Of a stretch of DNA of 64,000 nucleotides, positions 8,988 through 42,173 are shown in pieces. Each line of letters opens with the position of its first letter. Position 1 is the first letter of the stretch. Position numbers and translations under genes: made by a program. Source of the DNA: Candidatus Buchananbacteria bacterium CG10_big_fil_rev_8_21_14_0_10_33_19. Lineage in GTDB: Bacteria; Patescibacteriota; Patescibacteriia; 2-01-FULL-39-33. Below the pieces are notes generated by a model, which saw nothing but the letters and a program-made list of their open reading frames with translations, made no database searches and was not told the origin of the DNA. The stretch lies in the NCBI GenBank assembly GCA_002773855.1, contig PEZY01000012.1, forward strand, positions 161,570-225,569. The letters run 5' to 3'.

Positions 8988-11300
8988 ATGAAAATTCTAA
9001 TTACTGGCTCTGGTGGAATGTTGGGGAGCTCGATGATTCCAGTCTTAAGAGAGGAGGGGTACGATGTTTATCCGACAGATAAAAATCCAGTTGAGGGGAT
9101 TGAACTATTAGATGTTCGAGAATACGATCAGGTTTTGGCTTGGGCCAGTAGATTACAACCAGATTTTATATTTCATTTGGCAGCTGAGACAGATTTAGAA
9201 ATTTGCGAAAACGATCCAGAGTATGCTTATAGTACCAACACCATTGGTACTCAAAATGTGGCTTTGATTTGTAAAAAGTTGGGTATTAAAATGGTTTATA
9301 TTTGTACGGCGGGAATTTTTGATGGTAAAAAAGAAAGTTTTTATAATGAATTTGATGAAGCAATTCCTTTGTCGATTTATGGCAAAACAAAATTAGAAGG
9401 TGAAAAAATTGTTAAAGAAATGTTGCATGAGTATTTTGTGTGTCGTCCTGGTTGGATGGTGGGTGGTGGAGCTAAAGACAAAAAATTTGTTGGTCAAATT
9501 ATCAAACAAATTAGAGACGGTGCCAAAGAGTTGCATGCGGTTGATGATAAATTTGGCACCTCCACCTATACCAAAGATTTTTGTAAAAATTTAGCAGCTC
9601 TAATTAAGACCGAGCACTATGGTTTGTATCATATGGTGTCTCGTGGTTCAGCTAGTCGATATGATGTGGCCAAAGAAATTGTGAAAATTTTAAATCGCCC
9701 AGATATTACTGTTCATAGTGTCCACTCTGATTATTTTGCTAAGCGTTATCCAGTGACTCGGCCACGTTCGGAAATGTTGGATAATTTAATGTTGGATTTA
9801 CGGGGTTTAAATTTAATGCGTAATTGGCGAGAAATATTGCCAGAATATATTAATGAACATTTTTCTGATGTTATTTTAAAAAACGATATTAATAATATGG
9901 ACAACAGTGAATCAAAAAATAAAAAAAAGTTTATTGTCATTGGTGCTGGCCTCGCCGGACTATCTACGGCTTATAAGTTATTACAGCAAGGGGCTGATGT
10001 GACTATTTTAGAAAAGGCCAAGGAAGTGGGCGGACTAGCTAGAACTATTAAGTATAAGGATTATTATTTTGATTTTTCAGCTCATCGCTTTTCGGCAAGT
10101 AAAAAAGATTTGATTGAGGAAATGAAACAAATAATGGAAGGTAATTTTACTGTTCGCTCAAAAAGATCTCGAATATTGATGTGGAACAAGTGGCTTAATT
10201 ATCCATTTGAATTATTAGATTTGATGTTGCACATGCCTAAGTTGTTGGCTATTAGAGCGGTCTTGGATTATATTTATACTTTAATTAAAGAGAAAATAAA
10301 ACCGACTAAAATTGTTTCTTTTAAGGATTGGTTTATCGCTAGCTTTGGTTATACTTTATATAAAACAAATTGCGAGCCTTATGCTACTAAGCATTGGCGC
10401 ATTGATCCCGGACAAATTTCGTCAGAGTGGGGTGAAGCTCGTTCACCAGCTAGTTTTAATTTAAAAACCATTATTGCGGATTTGATTACCAAGAAATATG
10501 CTAATGAGTTGGGTGCCGATAATCCTTATCCAGATGCGGATAGCTTCTATTATCCCAAGACTGGTGGCGTTGGCTCTATTGCCAATCGTTTTGCAGATGA
10601 AATTAGAAACATGGGCGGCAAAATTTACACTGAAGCAGAAATTACCAAAATTGATTTGTCTGGTGACAAAGCAGTAGTGGAATTTAATAAATATGGCAAC
10701 AGTCAAAAAATTGAAGCCGACAAAGTAGTGTCGACAATTTCAGTTTATATTTTATCAAATTTAGTTACTCCAGCTGTACCAGAAGAAGTCAAGGCTAGAT
10801 TGTCAAAGTTAACATACCTGAATACTATTTTTATAAATGTAATAATTAATCGTCCAAAAATTAGTGATGATTCTTGGTTATACTTTCCACAACCATCAGA
10901 AGAAATTATTTTTAATCGAGCAGTCGAATTTAAGAATTGGAGCGAAGATATGGCACCAAAAGACAAAACTAGCTTATGTTTGGATATATCTTGTACTAGT
11001 AGTGAGAAAATATGGACAGAGGATAATGATGCAGATTTAATTGCTAAAGCTAAAGAAGGACTAGTGAGGTCAAAAATTATTTCTAGTGTTGATGAGGTAG
11101 AAGAAACTTTTGTATTGAAAATTCCTTTCACTTATCCAGTTTATGATTTGGGTTATATTGATAATTTGAGACCAGTTGTAGAATCACTAGAGAAAAATGA
11201 TAAGTTAAAATTAGTGGGGCGTATTGGTAAGTTTAGTTATTCTAATATGGATGACGTTATAGCCGATGGTTTTGCTTTGGCTAATGATTTAATGAAATAA
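8988..11300 (+). CDS. Bifunctional fusion: N-terminal RmlD-like NAD(P)H sugar reductase (SDR) plus C-terminal FAD-dependent Glf/UDP-galactopyranose-mutase-like flavoprotein
   Basis: N-terminus MKILITGSGGMLGSS ... YGKTKLEGE (RmlD-like). After a Lys-rich linker (NSESKNKKK), KKFIVIGAGLAGLSTAYKLL ... EKAKEVGGLARTI ... FSAHRF resembles the Glf FAD-binding N-terminus. There is no internal stop or start. Confidence 0.65.
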   Translation: MKILITGSGGMLGSSMIPVLREEGYDVYPTDKNPVEGIELLDVREYDQVLAWASRLQPDFIFHLAAETDLEICENDPEYAYSTNTIGTQNVALICKKLGIKMVYICTAGIFDGKKESFYNEFDEAIPLSIYGKTKLEGEKIVKEMLHEYFVCRPGWMVGGGAKDKKFVGQIIKQIRDGAKELHAVDDKFGTSTYTKDFCKNLAALIKTEHYGLYHMVSRGSASRYDVAKEIVKILNRPDITVHSVHSDYFAKRYPVTRPRSEMLDNLMLDLRGLNLMRNWREILPEYINEHFSDVILKNDINNMDNSESKNKKKFIVIGAGLAGLSTAYKLLQQGADVTILEKAKEVGGLARTIKYKDYYFDFSAHRFSASKKDLIEEMKQIMEGNFTVRSKRSRILMWNKWLNYPFELLDLMLHMPKLLAIRAVLDYIYTLIKEKIKPTKIVSFKDWFIASFGYTLYKTNCEPYATKHWRIDPGQISSEWGEARSPASFNLKTIIADLITKKYANELGADNPYPDADSFYYPKTGGVGSIANRFADEIRNMGGKIYTEAEITKIDLSGDKAVVEFNKYGNSQKIEADKVVSTISVYILSNLVTPAVPEEVKARLSKLTYLNTIFINVIINRPKISDDSWLYFPQPSEEIIFNRAVEFKNWSEDMAPKDKTSLCLDISCTSSEKIWTEDNDADLIAKAKEGLVRSKIISSVDEVEETFVLKIPFTYPVYDLGYIDNLRPVVESLEKNDKLKLVGRIGKFSYSNMDDVIADGFALANDLMK

Positions 11301-26954: not shown

Positions 26955-28046
26955 ATGAATAATACATTTGCAAAATATATTATTGGTGGATTCATTAGCT
27001 ACGGAATAAAAATTATTTTAACTTATACAGTGATTAATTTTTTTGACCTTTGGTATTTTTATGCTTATCTATTTTCTTTGGGAGTGGTTATTTTTATAAA
27101 TTTTGTTATTAATTCATTTTTTATTTTTAAGGTTAGTGATTTTAACGTTATTAGGATTATAAAATATGTAGTATCAATTTTTATATTTAATTCTTTGGAT
27201 GCTGGATTGGTAGTTATTTTAACTGATAAGTTTTTCTTATATTATTTACTATCAATTACTATATCTACTATTGTTATTTTTTTGGTAAAATTTATTATTT
27301 ATAAATATTTTATTTTTAATACTAATTCTAATTATAATTCTAATGTAAATACCGATAACAAAAATATTTTTTCGTCAAAGGCTTATCTAAAAGAACATGA
27401 CAAGCCTTATCTTAAGGGTTATGAAAAAGTAGTAATTGAAAAATATTTTACTTCAAATATGAAGATTTTAGATTTGGGTTGTGGTGCTGGCAGAACTAGT
27501 AAGATTTTAAGTGATATGGGTTGTAGGGTTATTGGTGTGGATATTTCTGACAATCTAATTGATCTAGCCAAACAAAAATATCCCAATCTAGATTTTAGAA
27601 TTGGCGATGCTACTAGTTTAGATTTTGAAGACAATTATTTTGATGCTGTGTTATTTTCTTTTAATGGTATTGACTATGTTCATCCTAGAAAACTTCGCTT
27701 GCAAGTTTTAGAAGAGATTAATAGGGTGTTAAAAAATGGCGGGTTATTTGTTTATTCATCTCATAATGCTTTAAATATTCCTAGAACTAAGATATCGATA
27801 TTAACATTTTTAAATAGTCTATTAACTTTAAGAATTTTTAGTTATTATAGAAATGAAAAACATGATTTAGGAGATATTGTTACTTATTATGGTAATATTT
27901 GGTCTGAGGAAAAAGATTTAAATAAGCATGGTCTAGTTTTAATTGATTGCGTAGGCGTTGGATCTGTATCTAGTATTAAAAATAAATTATTACTTAGTTT
28001 ATTATCTAAGCATATAATGTATGTGGCAAAGTCTAATAATCAATAA
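26955..28046 (+). CDS. Fusion: N-terminal GtrA-like 4-TM domain plus C-terminal class I SAM-dependent methyltransferase
   Basis: GtrA-like KYIIGGFISYGIKIIL ... INFVINSFFIFK. MTase motif I ILDLGCGAGRTSKIL ... VIGVDIS. Confidence 0.65.
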   Translation: MNNTFAKYIIGGFISYGIKIILTYTVINFFDLWYFYAYLFSLGVVIFINFVINSFFIFKVSDFNVIRIIKYVVSIFIFNSLDAGLVVILTDKFFLYYLLSITISTIVIFLVKFIIYKYFIFNTNSNYNSNVNTDNKNIFSSKAYLKEHDKPYLKGYEKVVIEKYFTSNMKILDLGCGAGRTSKILSDMGCRVIGVDISDNLIDLAKQKYPNLDFRIGDATSLDFEDNYFDAVLFSFNGIDYVHPRKLRLQVLEEINRVLKNGGLFVYSSHNALNIPRTKISILTFLNSLLTLRIFSYYRNEKHDLGDIVTYYGNIWSEEKDLNKHGLVLIDCVGVGSVSSIKNKLLLSLLSKHIMYVAKSNNQ

Positions 28047-28048
28047 AT

Positions 28049-28804
28049 ATGATTTTAAAAAAGAAAAAAGCATTTTTAAGTTTAGTTGAAGTGTCTTTGG
28101 ATGATGCTGAAGCTATTAGCGTAATGACTCAAAGAAAAAAATACGATCATATTAATATTGTTAGTTATAATTTTTTGGATCATGATAACAATTTTAAATT
28201 AAAGAAAAAGCAGAGTGCTAGAATTGTTTTGGGTGACGACATCGATAAGTTATTGGCCGCCTTTTCAGATACTTGTCGTAAGCATATCAGGAGAACTTTT
28301 AAAATTGATAATTTATATTTTAAAATGATGGATTCAAATTTTGATAAAACTTATTTAGCTTATTGTAATTTTGAATTAGCTAATGGTAGAACGCCATTTT
28401 CAAAATCAACACTTAATAAGATGTTAATTTTTAATGCTTATTATAATAATGAAATTATTTCTTCTATTTTGTGTTATGATACCAAGCCATCGTTGAAAGC
28501 CCATACTATTTTTTCTAAGCGTTTGGAAATTGATAATAAGGATGAATATAAGATAATAGGTTACGCCTCCAAAAGATTGATATATGAAATTTGTAAATAT
28601 GGAATTTTGAATAATTATACTCATTTTGATTTAGGGTCGGTTAATTTTGATGATGAGTCTAAACGGGGTATAAATAATTTTAAACTAAGTTTTAATCCAT
28701 TAGTGGTCGAAGAGTACCACTATATTTATACTAGTAAGAGATTCATATTATTGAATTATATTAATAAAATTGTTAAAAAAATATTGGCTATTATTGGACG
28801 ATAA
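28049..28804 (+). CDS. Hypothetical protein; weak FemAB/GNAT-like (Acetyltransf_6-like) character
   Basis: No strong motif; weak FemAB/GNAT-like character only. Confidence 0.25.
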   Translation: MILKKKKAFLSLVEVSLDDAEAISVMTQRKKYDHINIVSYNFLDHDNNFKLKKKQSARIVLGDDIDKLLAAFSDTCRKHIRRTFKIDNLYFKMMDSNFDKTYLAYCNFELANGRTPFSKSTLNKMLIFNAYYNNEIISSILCYDTKPSLKAHTIFSKRLEIDNKDEYKIIGYASKRLIYEICKYGILNNYTHFDLGSVNFDDESKRGINNFKLSFNPLVVEEYHYIYTSKRFILLNYINKIVKKILAIIGR

Positions 28805-28853: not shown

Positions 28854-30185
28854 ATGTTAGTTAGATTAAAAAACTTATTCTCTAAGAAATTCATCAAAGA
28901 TGCCATGGTTTTACAGGTTGGTAGTGTTTTTTCTAGTAGTATATTTTTCTTGGGTTCTGTGGCTTTGGCTAGATTTTTAGGAGTTGAACTTTACGGTCAA
29001 TATGCTTTGATATTTACTTTCATTAGTTTAGTTAATTTGTTTACTAATTGGGGTGAGCAGGGTGTGGCTTTAACAATTGCCCCAGAAGCTTATGCCAAGG
29101 GTGATATTAATAAGTTTCAAGAGGTGATTAAGTATTTCTTTTTTATTACCACTATATCAACATTAATTGTTAATGTTGGTGTATTTTTCTTTGCTCCTAG
29201 GTTAACAGAAATACTTTACCATAATCCGCAAATAGGAAATTTTGCTAGAGTTGTTTTGCTGATGAGCATACTTCAGATAATTTATTTATTTTTTACAGTA
29301 ATTTTACAAATTGTGAGAAATGTAAAATATCTCTCTGTTCTCGATGCTATTAATAAATTTTTACATGTTGGTATTTCTGTCTTACTTGTATTTTTGGGCT
29401 ACGGCCTGTGGGGAGTAGTATATGGTAAATTAATTGTGGCTATTATTTTCTTGATATTCTCAGTGGTAGCTTATAAAATTTTATTTAAAAATAATAGTTT
29501 AATGCCATCAATCAAAGAATTATTGTTTGGGATTAACTATAAAATTATTAAGAAATTTTTTAGATTTGGGATAGCTATTTCTTTGGATAAAAATATCGGT
29601 AGTTTATTTGGAATTTTGCCACTAATGTTACTGGGTTATTATGGTTCTATTGAGCAGGTGAGTTACTATAAGGTGGCTTATGGCTATATATCCTTGCCAA
29701 TGATACTCTTAGGTCCAGTTTCTAGATTACTGTCGGTTCAATTACCACAGTCTAAAGCTTATGGTCTTAATGTTTTAAGACGAGACTTTTGGCGGAGCAC
29801 TTTATTCTCTGGTTTTATTAATATGTCTTTGGTTTTAATATTTTTAATTCCGGCTAAATTTTTAGTGGAGACTTTTTATGGTGCAGATTTTATGGGTAGT
29901 GTGCCAGCTATTTATTTTCTATCAATAGTGGTAATACTTAGTGGTTTTAATATTGGACTAGGGTCAATTATGAAGACAATCAGAAAAATGAAATATTCAA
30001 TTGTCATTAATGTTTCTACTATCGTTGTTCAATTATTAACTTTTTGGATTATGATTCAATATTTACATTTTAGTGCTTTGATTTCAGTAATAGCGTCTTT
30101 GGTTTTTTTGACAATTTTTAATATGATATTTATGTTTGGCTTGTTAATTAGAAATGTTGGTTTAAGTAAAAAAAGTGATTTTTAA
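28854..30185 (+). CDS. Polysaccharide/oligosaccharide flippase (Wzx/MOP superfamily)
   Basis: 443 aa with about 12-14 TM segments inside a glycan cluster. Confidence 0.6.
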   Translation: MLVRLKNLFSKKFIKDAMVLQVGSVFSSSIFFLGSVALARFLGVELYGQYALIFTFISLVNLFTNWGEQGVALTIAPEAYAKGDINKFQEVIKYFFFITTISTLIVNVGVFFFAPRLTEILYHNPQIGNFARVVLLMSILQIIYLFFTVILQIVRNVKYLSVLDAINKFLHVGISVLLVFLGYGLWGVVYGKLIVAIIFLIFSVVAYKILFKNNSLMPSIKELLFGINYKIIKKFFRFGIAISLDKNIGSLFGILPLMLLGYYGSIEQVSYYKVAYGYISLPMILLGPVSRLLSVQLPQSKAYGLNVLRRDFWRSTLFSGFINMSLVLIFLIPAKFLVETFYGADFMGSVPAIYFLSIVVILSGFNIGLGSIMKTIRKMKYSIVINVSTIVVQLLTFWIMIQYLHFSALISVIASLVFLTIFNMIFMFGLLIRNVGLSKKSDF

Positions 30186-30194
30186 ATAAATTTT

Positions 30195-31382
30195 ATGTTA
30201 ACAATTTTTGCCAATATGATGATAAATAGTCCTGTAAGATTACAACATCTTAAGGACTCATTTAATTCATTTGAAAATATTTCTGATAATTGGTTGATTA
30301 ATATTAGAGGGAAATATCGAGATGAGGCCTTGGACTTTTTAGCTGATAGATTAAAAGAAAAAATGATTAGATTTGATCTATTAGATGAAAAACGTGGCTG
30401 GTATACTAATTCACTGGAAATACTAAAGTCTGCAAAGTATGATTATGTTTTATTGTGGCTAGAGGATCATATTAATATTGTTTCTCAAGGGGTATATTCT
30501 GAATTAGTAGCTGAAATGAAAAATAATAATGTAGATTATTTGATGTATTCGTGGTGGATGAATGGTGAAAGTAGAAAGCCATTTGAATTGGATAGTTTAA
30601 AGGCGGGAACGTATATTGATACAGTTGAATTAGATAAAAATAATTGGCAAAAAAGATTAAATGATGGTTATCAGGGACATCTAATATCTTTACTTGGTAT
30701 ATTTAATAAAAATTTTTTAATGAAGATTTTAGAATTAGAAAATGGTTATAAGTTTCCACGTTGGGTAACTACTAACATTTTTAGAGTGATGATTATCTTG
30801 TCTCGGCTGGGTGTTAAGTTTAATCACGGAAAGTTGTTTGATTCTATTAATACAGTGTTAGGTGGTAAACTAATTAAAAACCTCAAAGATCGACCATTTG
30901 AATTTGAAAAATCAGCTTACAGATTGGATGTTTTGCCGATTAATATGGGTTTAACTAAAATGGAATTATTTGTCTGCATAGATGATGATTTGACACTTGA
31001 CGGTAGTCAATTAATTAAGCGTGGTTTATATCCAATTGTTGACAGCATAAGTGTTGACTCAGGACTTAAAAAGGAGTACGATTGGGGGATGGAAGAAATA
31101 TTGTCGGATAATCATTTTTATATAATTACGCGTTATAAATTAAGGGAAAACCAGGTTTTCTCGGAAATTTATTATCAAGATATTCAGAGAATAGATGTAG
31201 TTCCAAGGATGACTATTATTAATAATTCTGGTAAATTAAAAGTTACTATTGGTAATAATATTAATGAGTTATTAAGTGGTCAGACTATGACAGTTTATTC
31301 GAATATTAAGTGTGAATTATTGGCAGTGGATGGTGATTGTGAGTTTATTTTGGTAATTCCATCTGGATTAAAAAAAATGTAA
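30195..31382 (+). CDS. Hypothetical protein, possibly GT-A-like (LLWLEDH acidic motif)
   Basis: Soluble 395-aa protein inside the cluster; no firm family assignment. Confidence 0.25.
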   Translation: MLTIFANMMINSPVRLQHLKDSFNSFENISDNWLINIRGKYRDEALDFLADRLKEKMIRFDLLDEKRGWYTNSLEILKSAKYDYVLLWLEDHINIVSQGVYSELVAEMKNNNVDYLMYSWWMNGESRKPFELDSLKAGTYIDTVELDKNNWQKRLNDGYQGHLISLLGIFNKNFLMKILELENGYKFPRWVTTNIFRVMIILSRLGVKFNHGKLFDSINTVLGGKLIKNLKDRPFEFEKSAYRLDVLPINMGLTKMELFVCIDDDLTLDGSQLIKRGLYPIVDSISVDSGLKKEYDWGMEEILSDNHFYIITRYKLRENQVFSEIYYQDIQRIDVVPRMTIINNSGKLKVTIGNNINELLSGQTMTVYSNIKCELLAVDGDCEFILVIPSGLKKM

Positions 31383-31390
31383 TATATATT

Positions 31391-31930
31391 ATGAGTGATG
31401 ATATTATAATTAAAAAAATTCCTAAAAACTTAATTTTGGATGTGGATGGAGTTTTGACTGATGGCACTTACCACTATACTATTGATGGCAAGGTGGCTAA
31501 GATTTTTGGACCCGATGATAATGATGCTCTGTGTTTATTGAAAAAATATTTAACCATTCATATGGTTAGTGGTGATAAAAGAGGTTTTGATATTACCAAA
31601 AAAAGGATTGATGACATGAAATTTCCTATTGATTTGGTAAGTACTTTTGATAGACTAAAATGGATAACTGATCGATTTAATCCAGAAGAAACAATTTATA
31701 TGGGTGATGGAATTTTTGATGCATCTATTTTTAATGGCGTGATGTATGGTATTGCCCCAGCAAATGCTTTTATCACAACCAAACAACATGCCAATTACGT
31801 AACACCATCCAGAGGAGCTGATAGTGCGGTAGCTGAAGCTTGCTTGCATATACTAGAGAAATTTTTTGAACCATTTGACCCACTTAATTTAAATGTGGAT
31901 AGTGTTGGCGTCTGGCAGAATAAAAAATAA
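31391..31930 (+). CDS. HAD-superfamily phosphatase, KdsC (YrbI)-like sugar-phosphate phosphatase
   Basis: LILDVDGVLTDG motif I. 179-aa size and GDGIFDASIF motif IV-like as in KdsC. Confidence 0.7.
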   Translation: MSDDIIIKKIPKNLILDVDGVLTDGTYHYTIDGKVAKIFGPDDNDALCLLKKYLTIHMVSGDKRGFDITKKRIDDMKFPIDLVSTFDRLKWITDRFNPEETIYMGDGIFDASIFNGVMYGIAPANAFITTKQHANYVTPSRGADSAVAEACLHILEKFFEPFDPLNLNVDSVGVWQNKK

Positions 31931-31944
31931 ATAATTATATTTCT

Positions 31945-32769
31945 ATGAAAATTGATAAAGATACAATTGCCTGTATTTCTATGGCATCTCGACCTGGTGA
32001 TTTGGGCGCCACTATTTTTAATGCTAGTTTTGACCACCTATCTTTGAATTATATTTATAAGCCATTTGGGGTGACCTTGAAAAATTTAGATAAGGGCGTT
32101 AATGGTATTAGGGCTTTTGGCATTAGAGGCTGTGGTGTATCTATGCCACATAAAGTGGAAGTGATGAAATATTTAGATGAGATTGATGACGTTGCTAAAA
32201 AAATTGGTGCTATCAATACTATTGTTAATAATGATGGAAAGTTAACTGGCTATAATACTGATTTTTTTGGTGCTAAAAAAATTATATCTGAAACTTATAA
32301 TTTATCCGGTAAAAAAGTTTTAATAATTGGAGCCGGAGGTGTATCTCGAGCGATTATTATGGCCTTAAAAGAAAATGGGGCTGGTGAAATTTTTATTGCC
32401 AATAGAAATGAATCTAAGGCAGAAACTTTGGCTACAGAATTTGAATTGACTACATTGCCTTATGATAAGATTAATGATTTTTCTGCTGACTTGCTAGTAA
32501 ATGCCACTGCAGTTGGCATGTCTCCAGATGTTGATGAGATGATTATTTTAGAAAGTGCTATTGATAATTTTGAGGCTGTTATGGATGTTGTAATATACCC
32601 CAGTGTTACTAAATTAATGGCCTTAGCCCAGAATAAGGGCAAGGTGGTCATTGCTGGTTTTAATATGGCCCTATATCAGGCGGCTGAGCAGTTTAAGATG
32701 TACACTGGAGTTGAAGCTCCACTAGGAGTGATGAAAGAAAATATGATAAATTTATTTAGTCAAAAGTAA
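31945..32769 (+). CDS. Shikimate/quinate dehydrogenase (AroE) family NAD(P) oxidoreductase
   Basis: S-M-P-H-K substrate motif, YNTDFFG (NTD motif), and IGAGGVSRAI Rossmann motif. Confidence 0.7.
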   Translation: MKIDKDTIACISMASRPGDLGATIFNASFDHLSLNYIYKPFGVTLKNLDKGVNGIRAFGIRGCGVSMPHKVEVMKYLDEIDDVAKKIGAINTIVNNDGKLTGYNTDFFGAKKIISETYNLSGKKVLIIGAGGVSRAIIMALKENGAGEIFIANRNESKAETLATEFELTTLPYDKINDFSADLLVNATAVGMSPDVDEMIILESAIDNFEAVMDVVIYPSVTKLMALAQNKGKVVIAGFNMALYQAAEQFKMYTGVEAPLGVMKENMINLFSQK

Positions 32770-32781
32770 GTTAATAAAATT

Positions 32782-34362
32782 ATGAATTACAAAGTATGTA
32801 TTTTGGCTGCAGGAGTTGGGAGTCGAATGGGAGAATTATCAAATCATGTTAATAAGGCAATTTTACCGGTTAAGTTTAAGGCCGTTATTTCATATATAGT
32901 AGAAAAGTTTTCCGAAAATGTTGAGATAATAGTGGCTGTTGGTCATAAAAGTGATACAGTTATTAATTATTTAACTTTGGCTTATCCTAATCGAAAATTT
33001 ACTTATGTCGAGGTTGATAAATATATGGGTCCAGGTACTGGACCAGGTTATTCTTTGTTGCAGTGTAAAGATAGTTTGCAATCACCATTTATTTTCTTTG
33101 CGGCTGATACTATCGTTTTAGAGGATATTCCAATACCAGATCATAATTGGTTTGGCATAGCACCAGTTAAAGAGACTGAGCCTTATTGTACAATTAAGAT
33201 TAAAAATAATTTGGTCTATCAATTAGATGATAAAATTAAAACCGATAATAAGTTTGCTTTTATTGGTTTAGCTGGTGTTAAGGACTTTGAAGATTTTTTT
33301 GATTCCTTAGAAAAAAATAAAGAAATTGCTAGTGGTGAAATTCAAGTTTCCAATGGTTTTAGAGCCCTAGTGTCAAAAGAATTGAAACCGGTCGGCTTTA
33401 CTTGGTTTGATACTGGTACTATGGAAAGTTATCAAAAAGTTAATAAGAATTTTTCTGGCCAAGCCGAGAAGTTTGATTTTTCTAAAGGTGATGAGTTTTT
33501 ATATTTTGTAGAAAATAGAGTGATCAAATTTTTTGCTGATGAGTCAATAGTTAAAAATAGATATTTTAGATCTAAAAACTCGCTAAAGGGTTTGTGTCCT
33601 GATGTTTTAGAGCCATTAGGAAATTTTTATGCTTATGACAAAATTGATGGCCAAGTATTGTACAATGTTATGAATTCTCAGATTGTTAATGATTTTTTGG
33701 AATGGGCTAGGATAAATATTTGGCAAGAAAATAAGCTGAGCGATGAAGATAAAAAGATTTTTAATGATGCTTGTCATAAGTTTTATTATGATAAAACTAT
33801 GAAGCGAATAGAGTTGGCACAAAATAAGTTGGGAATTATAGATGGTCAGAATGTTATTAATGGTTTAGCTGTGCCTAGCTTAAGCGAATTACTATCAAAA
33901 ATAGATTGGGCTAATATAGAAAGTGGTGTGTCATGTAATTTTCATGGTGATTTACAGTTTGATAATATACTAGTAACTCGTGATAAAATCAGTAATTTAA
34001 ATAAATTTGTACTATTAGATTGGCGTCAGGATTTTGGTGGTTTAAATACATCAGGTGATTTATATTATGATTTAGCTAAGCTTTATGGTGGTTTAACTAT
34101 GTCTTATCAGTTAATTAAGGATGGTATGTTTGATTTTGATAGAAGTGGTGAAAGTGTTTATTATAATTTTTATATTAAGAGTGATTTATTAGAGGCTAAA
34201 GAGGAATATGAAAAGTTTTTGATTAAAAATAATTTTGATTTGAAAAAAATTAAAATTATGACAGCTTTAATATTTTTTAATATGTCACCATTACATCATG
34301 ATCCGTTTGATGTGATGTTATATTTTTTGGGTAAAAATATGTTACATAAATTGTTAAAGTAA
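32782..34362 (+). CDS. Bifunctional sugar-1-phosphate nucleotidyltransferase (N-terminal) plus APH/choline-kinase-like sugar kinase (C-terminal)
   Basis: ILAAGVGSRMG nucleotidyltransferase G-x-G-x-R motif. C-terminal HGDLQFDNILV (Brenner motif) and LLDWRQDFG. Confidence 0.7.
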   Translation: MNYKVCILAAGVGSRMGELSNHVNKAILPVKFKAVISYIVEKFSENVEIIVAVGHKSDTVINYLTLAYPNRKFTYVEVDKYMGPGTGPGYSLLQCKDSLQSPFIFFAADTIVLEDIPIPDHNWFGIAPVKETEPYCTIKIKNNLVYQLDDKIKTDNKFAFIGLAGVKDFEDFFDSLEKNKEIASGEIQVSNGFRALVSKELKPVGFTWFDTGTMESYQKVNKNFSGQAEKFDFSKGDEFLYFVENRVIKFFADESIVKNRYFRSKNSLKGLCPDVLEPLGNFYAYDKIDGQVLYNVMNSQIVNDFLEWARINIWQENKLSDEDKKIFNDACHKFYYDKTMKRIELAQNKLGIIDGQNVINGLAVPSLSELLSKIDWANIESGVSCNFHGDLQFDNILVTRDKISNLNKFVLLDWRQDFGGLNTSGDLYYDLAKLYGGLTMSYQLIKDGMFDFDRSGESVYYNFYIKSDLLEAKEEYEKFLIKNNFDLKKIKIMTALIFFNMSPLHHDPFDVMLYFLGKNMLHKLLK

Positions 34363-34375
34363 ATTATTAAATATC

Positions 34376-35386
34376 ATGAATGATAATCAAATAGAATTAG
34401 GGTTTGGGCCAATGAGTTCAGAATCCATTGAAGCAGTATATCGCTATTCAAATTATAATCGGCGACGATTAATGTTGATTGCATCAAAAAATCAAATTGA
34501 TCATAGTGGTGGCTATGTTAATAATTGGACCACAGATCAGTACGCTGCTTATATTTCTAAGATGAAAGAATTATATCCTCAGGCTGAGGTTTTGGTTTGT
34601 CGAGATCATTGTGGACCTGGTTTTAATGGTAATGACGACTTAAGTGATGTCTATAAGACTATTGATGCTGACATTAAAAATAATTTTGATTTAATTCATA
34701 TTGATTTTTGTCACATAAAAGGTGATAAAGATCATCAATTAAGTGAATCAAAAAAAGTCATTGAATATTGTAAAAAATTAAATCCAAAGATAAAATTGGA
34801 AGTGGGTACTGATGAAAATTTGGGTATAAATTATAGCATTAATAATTTAGACGAAATTGAGAAGGAGGTTGATTATTTTACAGAATTTTGTCAGCCAGAT
34901 TTTTTTGTGGTTCAGACTGGAACATTAATTAAAGAGGTTAATCAGGTTGGTAATTTTAATCAAGAGTTTATTACTGATGCGTCTAAGATTTTACAAAATA
35001 GAAATATCAAATTAAAAGAGCACAACGCTGATTATTTGTCTGAAGATGAGATTAATAAAAGAATCGGTATAGTTGGGGCTATGAATATAGCGCCTCAGCT
35101 TGGAGTGGTGCAGACGATGACAGTTTTAAATAAGTGCTTGATTTATGGCATTGATTTTACTGACTATGCTAATGAAGTATATAATGGTAAAAAATGGTCT
35201 AAATGGTTGAATACGAATACACCAGAAAATAAATTTTTGTGTATAGCTATTGCTGGACATTATCATTTTGCCTCGTCAACCTATCAGCGCTTAATTGAAC
35301 AATTAAATAAACAAGAAGATATAGTAGAGACTATAATTAATAATTTAACAGAAATAATAAATCATTATGCAAAAACACGAGAATAA
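34376..35386 (+). CDS. GatZ/KbaZ (tagatose-6-phosphate kinase/epimerase-like, PF08013-type) family protein
   Basis: Recalled alignment to E. coli KbaZ: [31 protein letters not shown] vs [41 protein letters not shown] vs LILGGDHLGPN; LIHIDFC vs IHLDCS; LEVGTDE vs VIGTEVP. Confidence 0.55.
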   Translation: [336 protein letters not shown]

Positions 35387-35762
35387 ATTTTTTAGAGAAG
35401 TTAAAAAGCCATGGGGTAAGGAAATGTGGATGGCTTTAACAGATAGGTATTGCTATAAGCGAATCTATTTAAATGCTGGGACTCGGACTAGTTTTCAGTA
35501 CCACAATTATAAAGTGGAGACTAATTATATTATATCTGGTGAGGCAGAAATTTGGTTAGAAAATGATGATGGAGTAGTGGAAAAATTTCTTATGAAAGAA
35601 AACGATTTCTTTAATGTTACACCACCAAAGAAGCATCGAGTTATTGCCATTACTGATGTGATTTTGCAAGAAGTATCTACTCCTGAAGTTGATGATGTAA
35701 TTAGAATTGAAGATGATTCTAATCGACCGGATGGTAAAATTGAAAGTGAACAGGTTAAATAG
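35367..35762 (+). CDS. Cupin-domain protein (sugar-phosphate isomerase-like)
   Basis: KPWGKEMW ... YHNYKVETNYIISGEA is a cupin_2 pattern. Confidence 0.5.
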   Translation: MQKHENKFFREVKKPWGKEMWMALTDRYCYKRIYLNAGTRTSFQYHNYKVETNYIISGEAEIWLENDDGVVEKFLMKENDFFNVTPPKKHRVIAITDVILQEVSTPEVDDVIRIEDDSNRPDGKIESEQVK

Positions 35763-38984: not shown

Positions 38985-39656
38985 TCAAAGATAGAGATAG
39001 TATTTCCCTGGACTTGAATCAGGGAAGAAATTTCTGCAGGAGTCATGACTACGAAAGAAATATTTAATGACTTCAAAAAGAAAACTACAGTAGTTAAATG
39101 TTGGACTAGTACCATATCTAGCTACAATCTCTTCAATGGTCAGCCACTCTTGATTGTTTACCTCACCATCGGTTTCTTGATGCTGTAGTATGTCCTTTGT
39201 GTAGGCAATGAATAATGTTAAGACAAATGGAGCAGTAGGCTCTGCTTGTTCTTTCAATATGTCCAATATTAATGTGGGGTTCTGTACATCAGTTGGATTG
39301 TCTTTTAGATACATATTTGAGCGATAGAGCTCTGGACCAAACATAGCCACAAATTGTACATCATCTGTGTTAAATGCGAAACCAGTCTCTTCTCTGATTT
39401 CTCGCACTGCTGCTGATTTGGCGTTTATATCTGTGACATCAAAATGACCACCGTGGTGGATCTGGTAGTGGCCTTTGGCCGCACCCTTGACTCTCTGAGT
39501 TACTAAAAATTCAAACGGTAATAAAGGTAATTGAGGATTATTGTTTTTGCCCGTACTTAGTCGATATAAAATAGTAGCTACCACTGAGTGGGCTATTGGA
39601 TTTTTCCAATTTTTAGTTTTTTCATCTTGCATGGATTTCGTCAGTTCTTCAAACAT
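38985..39656 (-). CDS. NUDIX hydrolase with C-terminal extension
   Basis: Nudix box GHFDVTDINAKSAAVREIREETGF. The gene is visibly GC-richer than its neighbours. Confidence 0.65.
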   Translation of the reverse strand: MFEELTKSMQDEKTKNWKNPIAHSVVATILYRLSTGKNNNPQLPLLPFEFLVTQRVKGAAKGHYQIHHGGHFDVTDINAKSAAVREIREETGFAFNTDDVQFVAMFGPELYRSNMYLKDNPTDVQNPTLILDILKEQAEPTAPFVLTLFIAYTKDILQHQETDGEVNNQEWLTIEEIVARYGTSPTFNYCSFLFEVIKYFFRSHDSCRNFFPDSSPGKYYLYL

Positions 39657-39739: not shown

Positions 39740-40855
39740 TTATAAATTATAATATTTAATATAACTATCTATAGTTTTATTCCAGGTAAAAGTGTTGGCA
39801 AATGATTTGGCTTTTTCTCCCATGGTTTTTCTAAGAGATTCATTGGATATTAAGTAGTTAATTTTTTGAGCTAGTAATTCAATGTTGTTTTGAACAATTA
39901 AATACCCAGTTTGACCGTCAACAATAGCGTCTTCAGCGCCACAATTACTAGAACCGATTGACGGTACACCAAATAGACCAGCTTCGATATAAACCAAACC
40001 AAAACCCTCGTAGTGTTTATTGTCATTAATTGATGAGAGTATTAGTAACTTGGCTTTGGTATATAGAGCTTTTAGATTGTTATCACTGATACCAGATAAG
40101 AATATAATTTTGTCAGACACAGAATGTTTATCGGCTAATTCTTTTAATTCATTGAAATAGTTAGAATTAAATTGATAGCCAACAATAACATAATACAAAT
40201 CCTGGTGGTCTTTGGCTACTTTGGCAAAAGCTGGGATAGATATGTGGTAGCCTTTTCTGGGTTTTAAATCGCCAACACTCAATATAAAATTATATGGAAT
40301 ATCATCGTTGTTTGCTGGTGACGTTTTTAAATCTAAAATATCATGATTGACTCCCATATAAACAACTTCAATATTTGATAAATTAATTTTTGATTTTAAT
40401 TTATCAGCTGTAAATTCACTAATAGAAAAAATTTTCTTAGCCTTGGTGTAGGCTTTTTTTAGTAACCAACCAAAATATATATTGTCGAGGGGGGTAGTAG
40501 TATAAGTGCCAATAGCGGTGATATAAAATTTTTGTTTTCTTCTACCGAGCGATGCTAAATAGGCAATGATGCTATACGGATAACCGTCTAGGGCGTGAAT
40601 TATTTCGCAGTTTTTAGAAATTTTTCTAATATATAAAACATTAGGTATTATGTTTTTTATAAAAGATAGATTGCTATCGATTTTTTTAAATCTGAATTCA
40701 CTAGATTCATCATCAGTAATCACTGTTACATTAATTGATGGTCTAGTTTTTAATTCTTTGTAGACTTCAAGAGAATACCTGGCCCAACCGCCATAGCCCT
40801 CTTTAATAGATGAAGTTAAAATACAAATATTCATGTTCTTATTGTCCTCGACCAT
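39740..40855 (-). CDS. Glycosyltransferase family 4
   Basis: EGFGLVYIEAGLFGVPSIGSSNCGAEDAIVDGQTGY. Confidence 0.75.
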   Translation of the reverse strand: MVEDNKNMNICILTSSIKEGYGGWARYSLEVYKELKTRPSINVTVITDDESSEFRFKKIDSNLSFIKNIIPNVLYIRKISKNCEIIHALDGYPYSIIAYLASLGRRKQKFYITAIGTYTTTPLDNIYFGWLLKKAYTKAKKIFSISEFTADKLKSKINLSNIEVVYMGVNHDILDLKTSPANNDDIPYNFILSVGDLKPRKGYHISIPAFAKVAKDHQDLYYVIVGYQFNSNYFNELKELADKHSVSDKIIFLSGISDNNLKALYTKAKLLILSSINDNKHYEGFGLVYIEAGLFGVPSIGSSNCGAEDAIVDGQTGYLIVQNNIELLAQKINYLISNESLRKTMGEKAKSFANTFTWNKTIDSYIKYYNL

Positions 40856-42173
40856 TAACTACAACTTTAATTGTTTTGAGTATAATGCTTAGATCTAATA
40901 TTAGAGATCTATTTTTTATATAGTATAAATCGTATTTTAATTTTTCTAGTGACTCTTCTTTAGAGCCACCATAAGCTGGTCCATATAATTGAGCCCAGCC
41001 AACTAAGCCCGGTTTGACTAGTAAACGTTCTTTATAGAAGGGTATTTCTTTTTCTAAAATTTCTACAAATTCTGGTCGCTCTGGTCTGGGACCGACAAAA
41101 CTCATTTCTCCTTTGAGTACGTTTATTAATTGTGGTATTTCATCAATCCTAGTCTTCCTCATAAATAATCCAAATTTGGTAACACGTTTGTCATTTTTTT
41201 GAGCCCACTCGGCACCATTTTTTTCAGCATTATCTATCATTGATCTAAATTTCATAGCAGTAAATGTCTTGCCGTTCTTGCTAGTCCTTATTTGTTTAAA
41301 AATAATGGGACCAGGACTTTCTAGTCGTATAATCAAAGAAACAATTGGAGTTATTATTAAAGCGAATAGAAGACCTGTTAAGGCTAAAATAATATCTAAT
41401 ATTCTTTTGGTGACTTCGTATAATTTTTTGGAATGTTCTGATAGATTCTCTAAAAACCAACTATGGTCTATATGCTCGACAGGTATTTTATTGGTAATTT
41501 GCTCATAGAAACTATTGATATTATAAACATCTATTTCTAATGATAGACAGTCAAATATTTTTCTAGATGTTGATTCGTCCTTTAGGCTAATAGCGCTAAC
41601 TAAAATATCGATATCTTTTTCTAAACAGAATGTATTCAAATCATCAGGTAGATTTTCTAAAACAGTAACTTGATAGCCAAGTTGTGGCCTTTTTTTGATT
41701 TGTTCTTCTAATTCCGTGCTTAATTTATTTCTTCCAATAATTAAGACTTTATTAGCAATAGCTGACGATTTTATGAATTTATAAAATATTTTACGCCAAG
41801 TAAATATAAGTATAGCTGCTACAATTAAATTTATGATTAATATTCTTTGAGGCTTTAGATTGGCGATGAAAGGTGATAGAAAATAAAATATAGTAACAGC
41901 AATAGCCCCATTGATGACAAATATTTTGGCTAGTGAGTTAAATAGAGATGAATTATTGTAACTAGTTTTTAGGTCATAGAGGTCATTAATAAAGAAAACA
42001 ATTATCCAGGTTAAAAAAACTACAGAAAACAATAATAAATGCCTTGACCAAGTTTCTTGTTCAATTAAATAGCCATATCTAATGATCAGTGTTAAGTATA
42101 GAGACAAGTAAAAAAAACCAATATCGCCTATTAGTAGGGTTATTTTTTTAGTTTTGGTGACAAAGCTGGACAT
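40839..42173 (-). CDS. Polyprenyl-phosphate glycosylphosphotransferase (WbaP/CpsE-like bacterial sugar transferase), priming enzyme
   Basis: TM N-terminus. C-terminal RILDIILALTGL ... GPIIFKQIRTSKNGKTFTAMKFRSM ... DEIPQLINVLKGEMSFVGPRP. Confidence 0.85.
   Translation of the reverse strand: MSSFVTKTKKITLLIGDIGFFYLSLYLTLIIRYGYLIEQETWSRHLLLFSVVFLTWIIVFFINDLYDLKTSYNNSSLFNSLAKIFVINGAIAVTIFYFLSPFIANLKPQRILIINLIVAAILIFTWRKIFYKFIKSSAIANKVLIIGRNKLSTELEEQIKKRPQLGYQVTVLENLPDDLNTFCLEKDIDILVSAISLKDESTSRKIFDCLSLEIDVYNINSFYEQITNKIPVEHIDHSWFLENLSEHSKKLYEVTKRILDIILALTGLLFALIITPIVSLIIRLESPGPIIFKQIRTSKNGKTFTAMKFRSMIDNAEKNGAEWAQKNDKRVTKFGLFMRKTRIDEIPQLINVLKGEMSFVGPRPERPEFVEILEKEIPFYKERLLVKPGLVGWAQLYGPAYGGSKEESLEKLKYDLYYIKNRSLILDLSIILKTIKVVVNGRGQ

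Follow-up and report, generated by a model that had tools for sequence, protein, structure and literature searches.

The guanosine diphosphate (GDP)-D-glycero-alpha-D-manno-heptose pathway consists of GmhA, HddA, GmhB and HddC, that is, an isomerase, an anomeric kinase, a phosphatase acting on the distal phosphate and a nucleotidyltransferase. In the recycling of N-acetylmuramic acid (MurNAc), a haloacid dehalogenase (HAD) phosphatase, an anomeric kinase with the aminoglycoside phosphotransferase (APH) fold and a short nucleotidyltransferase (MupP, AmgK and MurU) convert a sugar 6-phosphate into a uridine diphosphate (UDP)-sugar without a mutase. In the summary given by PMC13326640, AfhE of E. 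coli phage HY126 is described as an N-terminal UDP-sugar pyrophosphorylase, i.e., a nucleotidyltransferase, joined to a C-terminal sugar-phosphate 1-kinase, and AfhF as a HAD phosphatase that converts arabinose-1,5-bisphosphate to arabinose-1-phosphate; the route from arabinose-5-phosphate, which is supplied by a KdsD-like isomerase, through these two intermediates to UDP-arabinose is reported there as experimentally shown, and gp52:53 and gp51 of RB69, as well as gp82 and gp81 of DLP3, are treated as counterparts of AfhE and AfhF. GatZ and KbaZ, long annotated as non-catalytic chaperones, are 4-epimerases shown in vivo to interconvert fructose-6-phosphate and tagatose-6-phosphate, and the active site proposed for GatZ holds a zinc ion on His88, His257 and Glu171, with Asp87 as the base and a glutamine replacing the third histidine of fructose-bisphosphate aldolase (FBA); GatZ was reported to be without aldolase activity (PMC11907403). 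Here we describe five genes from a 64,000-nucleotide (nt) stretch of Candidatus Buchananbacteria bacterium CG10_big_fil_rev_8_21_14_0_10_33_19 (contig PEZY01000012.1, positions 161,570 to 225,569; hereafter the window), encoding a HAD phosphatase, an AroE-like dehydrogenase, a nucleotidyltransferase-kinase fusion (NTK), a GatZ-like protein and a cupin. By analogy with the above systems, we propose, at a probability of roughly 0.55, that this cassette makes a nucleoside diphosphate (NDP)-activated rare sugar for the Wzx-type glycan locus that surrounds it.

The five consecutive open reading frames (ORFs) occupy positions 31391-35762 of the plus strand, exactly as given in a first-pass annotation of the window. 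They encode a HAD phosphatase of the KdsC type (C0; 31391..31930, 179 amino acids (aa)), an NAD(P)-dependent dehydrogenase of the AroE/SdhL family (31945..32769, 274 aa), NTK (32782..34362, 526 aa), which has an N-terminal nucleotidyltransferase (NT) domain of the sugar-1-phosphate type (32782..33456) and a C-terminal, divergent kinase domain of the APH/ELK fold (33457..34362), a TIM barrel of the GatZ/KbaZ type belonging to the class II aldolase superfamily (34376..35386, 336 aa), and a cupin resembling type II phosphomannose isomerases (PMI; 35367..35762, 131 aa). Since the intergenic gaps measure 14, 12 and 13 nt and the GatZ-like and cupin genes overlap by 20 nt, the five genes look like one operon. 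The ORFs between 24.2 and 46.2 kb were scanned against Pfam, and it is to this region that statements on scanned ORFs refer.

The co-occurrence of the cassette genes is far beyond chance. For the GatZ-like family, a database clustered at 90% identity contains at least 1589 close homologues, and a library of 50%-identity representatives contains 300 entries at E <= 1e-30. Our cellular sample comprised 85 loci (80 from a scan of one genome per species, four from contig look-ups, and the window), and the viral sample 80 loci kept from 160 IMG/VR contig matches; the locus counts depend on simple ORF calling and single-linkage clustering and, since many loci are truncated, are lower bounds. The cellular carriers include DPANN archaea, many lineages of the candidate phyla radiation (CPR), SAR86, SAR11/Pelagibacteraceae, Bdellovibrionales, Omnitrophota, Spirochaetota and others, and the GatZ-like protein of the window is 100% identical to GW933_01050 of a Candidatus Falkowbacteria (CPR) assembly. 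NTK was found in 74/85 cellular and 65/80 viral loci, the HAD phosphatase in 53/85 and 46/80, the cupin in 53/85 and 60/80, the AroE-like enzyme in 25/85 and 35/80, and a FabG-like short-chain dehydrogenase/reductase (SDR) in 19/85 cellular loci, the usual gene order being HAD-(AroE)-NTK-GatZ-(SDR)-cupin. Core proteins of the archaeal and bacterial cassettes share 58-66% identity; the cassette on phage contigs, among whose neighbours are genes for DNA polymerase, primase, exonuclease and endolysin, is 30-49% identical to the cellular one. Natural fusions also occur in the representative library, of GatZ with the cupin (P0256) and of GatZ with NTK in both orders (NTK+GatZ, P0316; GatZ+NTK, P0363). 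Synteny and fusions are strong evidence for a single pathway in which the GatZ-like protein, the cupin and NTK take part. The first-pass annotation had seen in the five genes a single pathway for an activated sugar or polyol; that they belong together holds, but a four-gene core (GatZ-like, cupin, NTK and HAD) with an accessory reductase is the more fitting description. Among the 71 non-redundant cellular loci containing NTK, 25 carry the AroE-like gene, 19 the SDR, none both and 27 neither.

The assignment of 34376..35386 to the GatZ/KbaZ family, on which the first-pass annotation had made its proposal depend, is confirmed at the level of the predicted structure. The protein scores 25.5 bits against PF08013, just below the gathering score of 26.7, and for many of its homologues a PF08013 match is precomputed. 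The marginal score is made good because the AlphaFold2 (AF2) model (predicted local distance difference test, pLDDT, 88) matches E. coli GatZ (2fiq) in Foldseek with a template modelling (TM) score of 0.78 and E 4e-14, and because hhalign gives 88.7% to E. coli GatZ vs 3% to GatY. In the structural comparisons, 2fiq and 3txv were matched at TM 0.73-0.80 (E 1e-13 to 1e-14), and FBA and GatY at TM 0.47-0.60. The hhalign alignment places D77-H78, D146/E147, Q180 (in VVQTG) and H216 at the positions of Asp87-His88, Glu171, Gln222 (in VVQPG) and His257 of GatZ. Cellular and viral members alike keep D77, H78, Q180, H216 and E147, the invariance of D146 being confined to the cellular set, and conservation of the motifs CRDHCGP, E.Gt.eN, QTG and KEHNaDY extends over 165 members of the two sets. 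Because these equivalents of the GatZ active site and the motifs around them are kept, the protein is very probably, as judged from its sequence, an active, metal-dependent retro-aldol/aldol epimerase of the GatZ type. The tagatose-type scaffold suggested earlier is likewise plausible for a ketose-phosphate intermediate, since GatZ and KbaZ are 4-epimerases of fructose-6-phosphate and tagatose-6-phosphate (PMC11907403).

Further fusions join the GatZ-like domain to a TylC3-like C-methyltransferase (P0347, P0388), a class I/II aminotransferase (P0340), a SnoaL-like domain (P0337) and, by a weak match, a GFO/IDH/MocA domain (P0335). In all five proteins the GatZ-like domain is more distant, with about 30% identity and the motif ERDHGGPGQG. 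Their richness in N, K and I suggests that they come from AT-rich hosts or from giant viruses. The TylC3-like family also adjoins the cassette as a separate gene in 23 cellular loci.

NTK is, by its architecture and its homology to the RB69 counterparts gp52 and gp53, with which the comparison was made, a predicted member of the AfhE-type family. Its N-terminus matches NTP_transf_3 and NTP_transferase in Pfam, and in Foldseek the AF2 model (pLDDT 91.7) retrieved GalU, RmlA, LicC, HddC and MurU at target TM-scores of 0.64-0.79. The C-terminal 300 residues form a very divergent APH-like kinase. For the window protein the Pfam APH match is marginal (E 0.02), and sequence and profile searches of the PDB with the kinase domain gave nothing significant; its homology becomes visible through the family-wide Pfam matches (APH is matched by 31/33 family members), through hhalign to RB69 gp52 and through fold searches. 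Invariant in the kinase domain are K249, H388-G-D390...N395 (HGDxxxxN) and D413-W-R415 (DWR). Against gp52, hhalign gives the cellular profile of the kinase domain a probability of 92.5% (E 4.8e-7, 248 columns), pairing FHGDLQFDN with IHGDPNFSN and LLDWRQDFGG...GDLYYDLAKL with FIDPRGYFGE...GPKLYDEAKV, and the viral NTK family one of 95.9% (E 5.5e-9); for the NT domain and gp53 the values are 94.8% (viral NTK family) and 55% (cellular profile). Among viral models, Foldseek matched RB69ORF052c (E 4e-10, target TM 0.62) and ORF053c (E 1e-8, target TM 0.71), as well as full-length two-domain proteins of phages and giant viruses, and PHROG 4098 matches NTK over its full length and PHROG 21938 its kinase domain. 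By analogy with AfhE we propose that the kinase domain phosphorylates the anomeric (C1) position. NTK had been called LicC/LicA-like in the earlier annotation; the NT fold does resemble LicC (TM 0.79), but neither a Choline_kinase nor a LicD match occurs in the scanned ORFs. The accompanying statement that the enzyme set matches no textbook route has to be revised for the combination of kinase, HAD phosphatase and nucleotidyltransferase, whose logic matches that of the GDP-heptose pathway and of the phage AfhE/AfhF route to UDP-arabinose as summarized in PMC13326640.

The cupin scores 40 bits against PF01050 (cutoff 23.6), the motifs KPWG.E.W, S.Q.H..K.E, HR and E.ST...DDV.R..D are conserved in 110 members, and from its sequence we propose that it isomerizes a ketose phosphate to an aldose phosphate. 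For the HAD phosphatase, the best match is the KdsC subfamily model TIGR01670, at 58.7 bits and below the cutoff of 106.95, a second KdsC model scoring 49.4 bits against a cutoff of 208. Across 97 cassette members, motifs I (DvDGv) and IV (mGDG..Da) are retained, and no DAHP (3-deoxy-D-arabino-heptulosonate 7-phosphate)-synthase-family or CTP_transf_3 protein, as in the context of 3-deoxy-D-manno-octulosonate (Kdo), occurs in the scanned ORFs. By analogy with the known systems the enzyme may remove the distal phosphate of a sugar 1,n-bisphosphate, or the phosphate of a sugar n-phosphate. It would be a non-orthologous replacement for AfhF, because the two belong to different HAD subfamilies. 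A different small HAD protein found in some phage cassettes (v11) aligns with RB69 gp51 at an hhalign value of 37%.

The AroE-like protein matches Shikimate_dh_N, Shikimate_DH and SDH_C above their cutoffs, and TIGR00507 (aroE) at 224 bits (cutoff 200.2). Of the models, the SdhL-type NF009202 fits best (245 bits, cutoff 306), and the best PDB match is HI0607/SdhL of H. influenzae (1npy, E 1e-51); 7cok, a 5-ketofructose reductase of the shikimate dehydrogenase family and hence a precedent for a ketosugar reductase, is also among the PDB matches. The cassette members, 25 cellular and 35 viral, were compared in an alignment that included E. coli AroE and HI0607. The equivalents of Lys65, Asn86 and Asp102 are invariant in all 60 members, and that of Gln244 in all but one viral member, which has His. 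The positions of Ser14, Ser16 and Tyr215 of AroE, which we take to be the binders of the shikimate carboxylate, have changed: the first is Ala in 23/25 cellular members (A/S overall), the second R/K in cellular and Y/K in viral members, and the third V/I, a loss shared by HI0607. No aro gene adjoins the AroE-like gene among the scanned ORFs of the window. The gene forms part of the sugar cassette in 60 loci, of which 35 are on phage contigs; it always co-occurs with the PMI-type cupin and, among the cellular loci, alternates with the SDR. Because the carboxylate-binding residues are lost, phage cassettes carry the gene and it alternates with an SDR, the alignments show a dehydrogenase that has kept its catalytic residues and was evidently recruited to a substrate other than shikimate, as had been suspected from the start. 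We propose an accessory NAD(P)H-dependent ketoreductase acting on a sugar or sugar-phosphate intermediate. Literature searches on SdhL returned nothing relevant, except tangentially one paper in which sdhL lies upstream of the sorbose operon of E. coli.

From these assignments a pathway can be sketched in which the order of all steps is deduced from homology and context. The GatZ-type enzyme would first invert C4 of a central ketose phosphate by a metal-stabilized retro-aldol/aldol reaction, most likely converting fructose-6-phosphate to tagatose-6-phosphate, and the PMI-type cupin would then turn the ketose phosphate into an aldose phosphate, of the talo or galacto configuration if the substrate is tagatose-6-phosphate, i.e., talose-6-phosphate (by analogy with the conversion of fructose-6-phosphate to mannose-6-phosphate) or galactose-6-phosphate. 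Because of the AfhE/AfhF route, to which NTK is tied by its homology to RB69 gp52/gp53, and of the logic of the GDP-heptose pathway, we propose that the kinase domain of NTK next phosphorylates the anomeric hydroxyl to give a 1,n-bisphosphate, that the KdsC-type HAD enzyme strips the distal phosphate, and that the NT domain joins the sugar-1-phosphate to a nucleoside triphosphate. In a subset of loci the AroE-like enzyme would add a reduction at the stage of the ketose or of a keto intermediate. Alternatively, the phosphatase might act first and the kinase on the free sugar, as in the MupP/AmgK/MurU route, with the same product. Kinases of the ROK glucokinase-like and PfkB types adjoin the cassette in some loci, which weakly favours a hexose as the substrate, and the fusions of the GatZ-like domain to an aminotransferase, a C-methyltransferase and possibly an oxidoreductase point to the keto group of the GatZ product as a hub for tailoring.

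Several observations weigh against this scheme. The family-specific Glu44 of GatZ is replaced by Ile35 in the hhalign alignment, and with 336 aa the window protein is 85 aa shorter than GatZ (about 420 aa); because of these two differences it may act on another ketose or run another reaction. The HAD family of the window shares with AfhF-type RB69 gp51 only the superfamily (hhalign 1.9%). LicC, a phosphocholine cytidylyltransferase, equals RmlA as a fold match of the NT domain (both TM 0.79), and the modelled fold by itself would be compatible with a non-sugar phospho-alcohol substrate. The scheme leaves the position of the reductase unexplained. Finally, a second paralogue of the NT domain, found in many loci, has no place in the scheme.

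This paralogue is 41-58% identical to the NT domain of NTK (e.g., L001 2967-4394, L004 4348-5529, L003 13328-14032, and others). It either stands alone, as in the 23 loci of cluster c7, or has a HAD domain attached, is often encoded beside a gene of the inositol-monophosphatase/FBPase family (c11, 16 loci), and is missing from the window.

Literature searches combining GatZ, cupin and nucleotidyltransferase found no description of the cassette product or of its sugar-forming half. The activation half, NTK plus HAD, is a new branch of the recently described AfhE/AfhF kind, as it appears from the homologies above; for the sugar-forming half, in which a GatZ-type epimerase and a PMI-type cupin may be joined by a reductase of the SdhL or SDR type, we could find no described counterpart. 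One could go further and assume that the cassette represents an unrecognized pathway common to all domains and to phages, leading from a central ketose phosphate to an NDP rare sugar without a described biosynthesis, such as an NDP-D-talo-hexose or a product of its reduction, amination or C-methylation. The hub would then be a C2-keto sugar phosphate, and not an NDP-4-keto sugar, on which the isomerase, reductase, aminotransferase and C-methyltransferase perform their tailoring, and phages may use the module to obtain a new sugar with which DNA or virions are glycosylated. We put this broader idea forward tentatively, as a possibility on which we would not yet rely.

The first-pass annotation had thought of a CDP (cytidine diphosphate)- or other NDP-alditol and hence of a teichoic-acid-like decoration. 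In such a route the AroE-like enzyme would reduce a ketose phosphate, e.g., tagatose-6-phosphate, to an alditol phosphate, the HAD phosphatase and the kinase would relocate the phosphate, and the LicC-like transferase would form the CDP-alditol. A ketoreductase does lie inside the operon, in a family that includes the ketosugar reductase 7cok; the match of the NT domain to LicC (TM 0.79) fits as well, and so do the fusions of the GatZ-like domain to keto-acting enzymes (the aminotransferase of P0340 and, weakly, the GFO/IDH/MocA domain of P0335) and the presence of a CDP-alcohol phosphatidyltransferase near the related locus L003. However, the reading rests on an optional gene (25/71 loci): many complete cassettes and about half of the phage versions are without the reductase, and where it is present an aldose-forming PMI-type cupin accompanies it, an enzyme for which such a route has no use. 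RB69 gp52, to which the kinase is homologous, is the counterpart of a kinase acting on the anomeric position of a sugar phosphate, models of the IspD/TarI type match only the first 50-67 residues of NTK, far below their cutoffs, and no LicD, TagF, CDP-alcohol or polyol-phosphate transferase was identified among the scanned ORFs. We therefore regard an alditol product as unlikely for the cassette as a whole. For the reductase-bearing loci the idea of a ketose-phosphate reductase yielding an alditol is kept alive, at similarly low odds, because the GatZ-like fusions suggest that the keto group is the tailoring hub. In the DPANN-like locus L003, a reductase-less cassette is followed by a methyltransferase and by the CDP-alcohol phosphatidyltransferase (10358-11164), and the product might in some organisms be transferred as a phospho-alcohol head group.

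Rather improbable is a true aldolase, a C-C bond-former coupled to C-methylation, which would add a dihydroxyacetone unit to an aldose phosphate to give a higher-carbon or branched ketose phosphate that is then isomerized, activated and, in some loci, reduced, following a logic like that of Kdo and heptoses. The GatZ-like protein has the fold of the class II aldolase superfamily, the HAD phosphatase is of the KdsC type, which acts on the distal phosphates of 8- and 9-carbon sugars, HddC is among the matches of the NT domain, and the TylC3-like C-methyltransferase is both fused to the GatZ-like domain and a neighbour of the cassette. The metal site, however, is that of GatZ, with two histidines, a carboxylate and a glutamine in place of the third histidine, rather than the three-histidine site of FBA, and for GatZ itself the absence of aldolase activity was reported (PMC11907403). 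We consider it very improbable that the cassette provides an ordinary NDP-hexose such as GDP-mannose independently of phosphomannomutase, with the cupin making mannose-6-phosphate from fructose-6-phosphate, NTK and HAD leading through mannose-1-phosphate to GDP-mannose, and the GatZ-like protein only feeding in fructose-6-phosphate. The cupin is indeed PMI type II-like, and the kinase, phosphatase and NT steps would bypass the mutase; but the invariant coupling or fusion of the cupin and NTK to the GatZ-type enzyme would be left without a reason, the reductase would get no role, and a phage cassette for a sugar that the host already makes is presumably less likely. Ordinary metabolism, i.e., a genuine shikimate dehydrogenase lying by coincidence next to a GatZ of tagatose/galactitol catabolism, has in its favour the TIGR00507 score and the database name of the TIM barrel, 'tagatose-bisphosphate aldolase non-catalytic subunit', but is hardly credible given that bacteria, archaea and phages have this gene set in common, that the carboxylate-binding residues of AroE are lost, that no PTS (phosphotransferase system), GatY or aro genes lie beside the cassette among the scanned ORFs, and that the canonical 422-aa GatZ of a PTS operon, as found on Listeria contigs, is only about 30% identical to the cassette protein. 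Membership in the Kdo, LicCA, TarI/TarJ (AbpA/AbpB-type) and shikimate systems was rejected because defining features of each had been looked for and found missing; a cyclitol was considered and not adopted.

The NDP-activated rare sugar that we favour would be used in a locus whose surroundings, in the Pfam scan, are typical of Wzx-type glycan synthesis, as the earlier placement of the genes in a glycan cluster had it. The locus contains a flippase (28854-30185) and, on the minus strand, a Bac_transf initiating transferase (40839-42173), together with three GT4 and one GT2 glycosyltransferases, methyltransferases, a polysaccharide deacetylase and an NAD-dependent epimerase/dehydratase. Neither the 251-aa ORF at 28049-28804 nor U395, a 395-aa protein encoded 8 nt upstream of the HAD gene (30195..31382, +), gave a confident family match in Pfam. 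U395 recurs beside the cassette in 15 cellular loci, and its matches are weak (Glycos_transf_2, E 0.012; a C-terminal Cupin_2 domain in one homologue, E 2e-4); we infer that it is a candidate glycosyltransferase using the cassette product. Another candidate for a cognate transferase is a family of 360-410 aa without Pfam or PHROG matches and with the motif HYDGYSH...PPLF(I/V)PPGF (e.g., L001 1259-2491; L123 8972-10063), whose gene lies directly downstream of the GatZ-like gene in 37/80 viral loci and occurs in 10 cellular loci; its cellular (c15) and viral (v4) sets align with an hhalign probability of 100%, and no convincing link of U395 to this family was found (hhalign 9.5%). A 223-aa NUDIX protein (38985-39656, -) may serve in NDP-sugar hydrolysis or proofreading; its cluster, c35, is represented close to the cassette in several unrelated loci (L076, L077 and L085, besides the window). 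An unusual architecture in the glycan locus is that of 26955-28046 (+), a GtrA-like four-helix membrane domain fused to a class I S-adenosylmethionine-dependent methyltransferase. Over the whole window (1-64000) the GC content is 28-37%, the GC skew is positive in each 2-kb bin, nearly all genes are on the plus strand, and no tRNA gene was found in the 64 kb.

Isolated phages yielded only distant relatives of the cassette. An NTK-like gene of Enterococcus phage 9183 (NC_055907.1 / MT939241.1, 30100-31668) and of Planchet (OX422066.1), whose product is 23-24% identical to the window NTK over 96% of its length, adjoins genes annotated as HAD hydrolase and phosphoheptose isomerase, and these genes are an AfhE/AfhF-like module with a different isomerase. 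Adjacent GatZ-like and NTK genes are present in the single-cell Marine virus AG-345-E15. Listeria 'phage' records were rejected as carriers, as they hold the canonical 422-aa GatZ beside ORFs of apparent PTS size on unverified contigs. One lineage of phage contigs (L143, L148, L149, L152, L156, L160-L165) has the order cupin-NTK-SnoaL-AroE-GatZ without HAD, followed by genes for a carbamoyltransferase, three tandem copies of one 247-aa protein, radical SAM proteins and methyltransferases, an island that looks like elaborate sugar tailoring.

That CPR bacteria and DPANN archaea, whose genomes are very small, nevertheless keep core proteins 58-66% identical to one another, with the module found also in the abundant marine SAR11 and SAR86 and in many uncultured phages, makes the identity of the sugar worth establishing. 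It would add a nucleotide-sugar pathway and a function for a distinct branch of GatZ/KbaZ, give a physiological role to the SdhL-type 'shikimate dehydrogenases', and extend the AfhE/AfhF logic of activation from the arabinosylation of phage DNA to cellular glycans. Within the cassette, a gene labelled 'shikimate dehydrogenase' or 'tagatose-bisphosphate aldolase non-catalytic subunit' carries a misleading name.

Of the described systems, AfhE/AfhF shares with the cassette the fusion of an N-terminal nucleotidyltransferase to a C-terminal kinase in one bifunctional protein, to which NTK is homologous in both domains, as well as the partner HAD phosphatase, the upstream aldose-ketose isomerase and, in our scheme, the logic leading from a sugar n-phosphate through the 1,n-bisphosphate and the sugar-1-phosphate to the NDP-sugar. 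It differs in that its isomerase is a SIS-domain enzyme rather than a PMI-type cupin and its phosphatase AfhF/GmhB-like rather than of the KdsC type; the cassette adds a GatZ-type enzyme and an optional reductase, its proteins are only about 20% identical in sequence to those of RB69, and the window context is a cell-surface glycan locus instead of a DNA-modification module. The GDP-heptose pathway follows the same four-step logic, and HddC matches the NT domain structurally, but its isomerase, kinase (HddA belongs to the GHMP family) and phosphatase come from other families and there is no GatZ-type step. The MupP/AmgK/MurU set resembles the cassette in combining a HAD phosphatase, an APH-fold kinase and a nucleotidyltransferase, MurU (4y7u) matching the NT domain at TM 0.77; there, however, the phosphatase precedes the kinase in a free-sugar route, the proteins are separate, and epimerase, isomerase and reductase steps are absent. 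SdhL (1npy) and 7cok have, like the cassette dehydrogenases, kept the catalytic Lys and Asp and lost the Ser-x-Ser carboxylate motif, whereas R, K or Y at the Ser16 position sets the cassette enzymes apart. GatZ and KbaZ, finally, share with the cassette protein the fold (TM 0.78 to 2fiq) and the equivalents of Asp87-His88, His257, Glu171 and Gln222, but the cassette protein is about 85 residues shorter, 12-19% identical to them, has Ile for Glu44, scores below the Pfam gathering threshold, and stands in a biosynthetic rather than a PTS/catabolic context.

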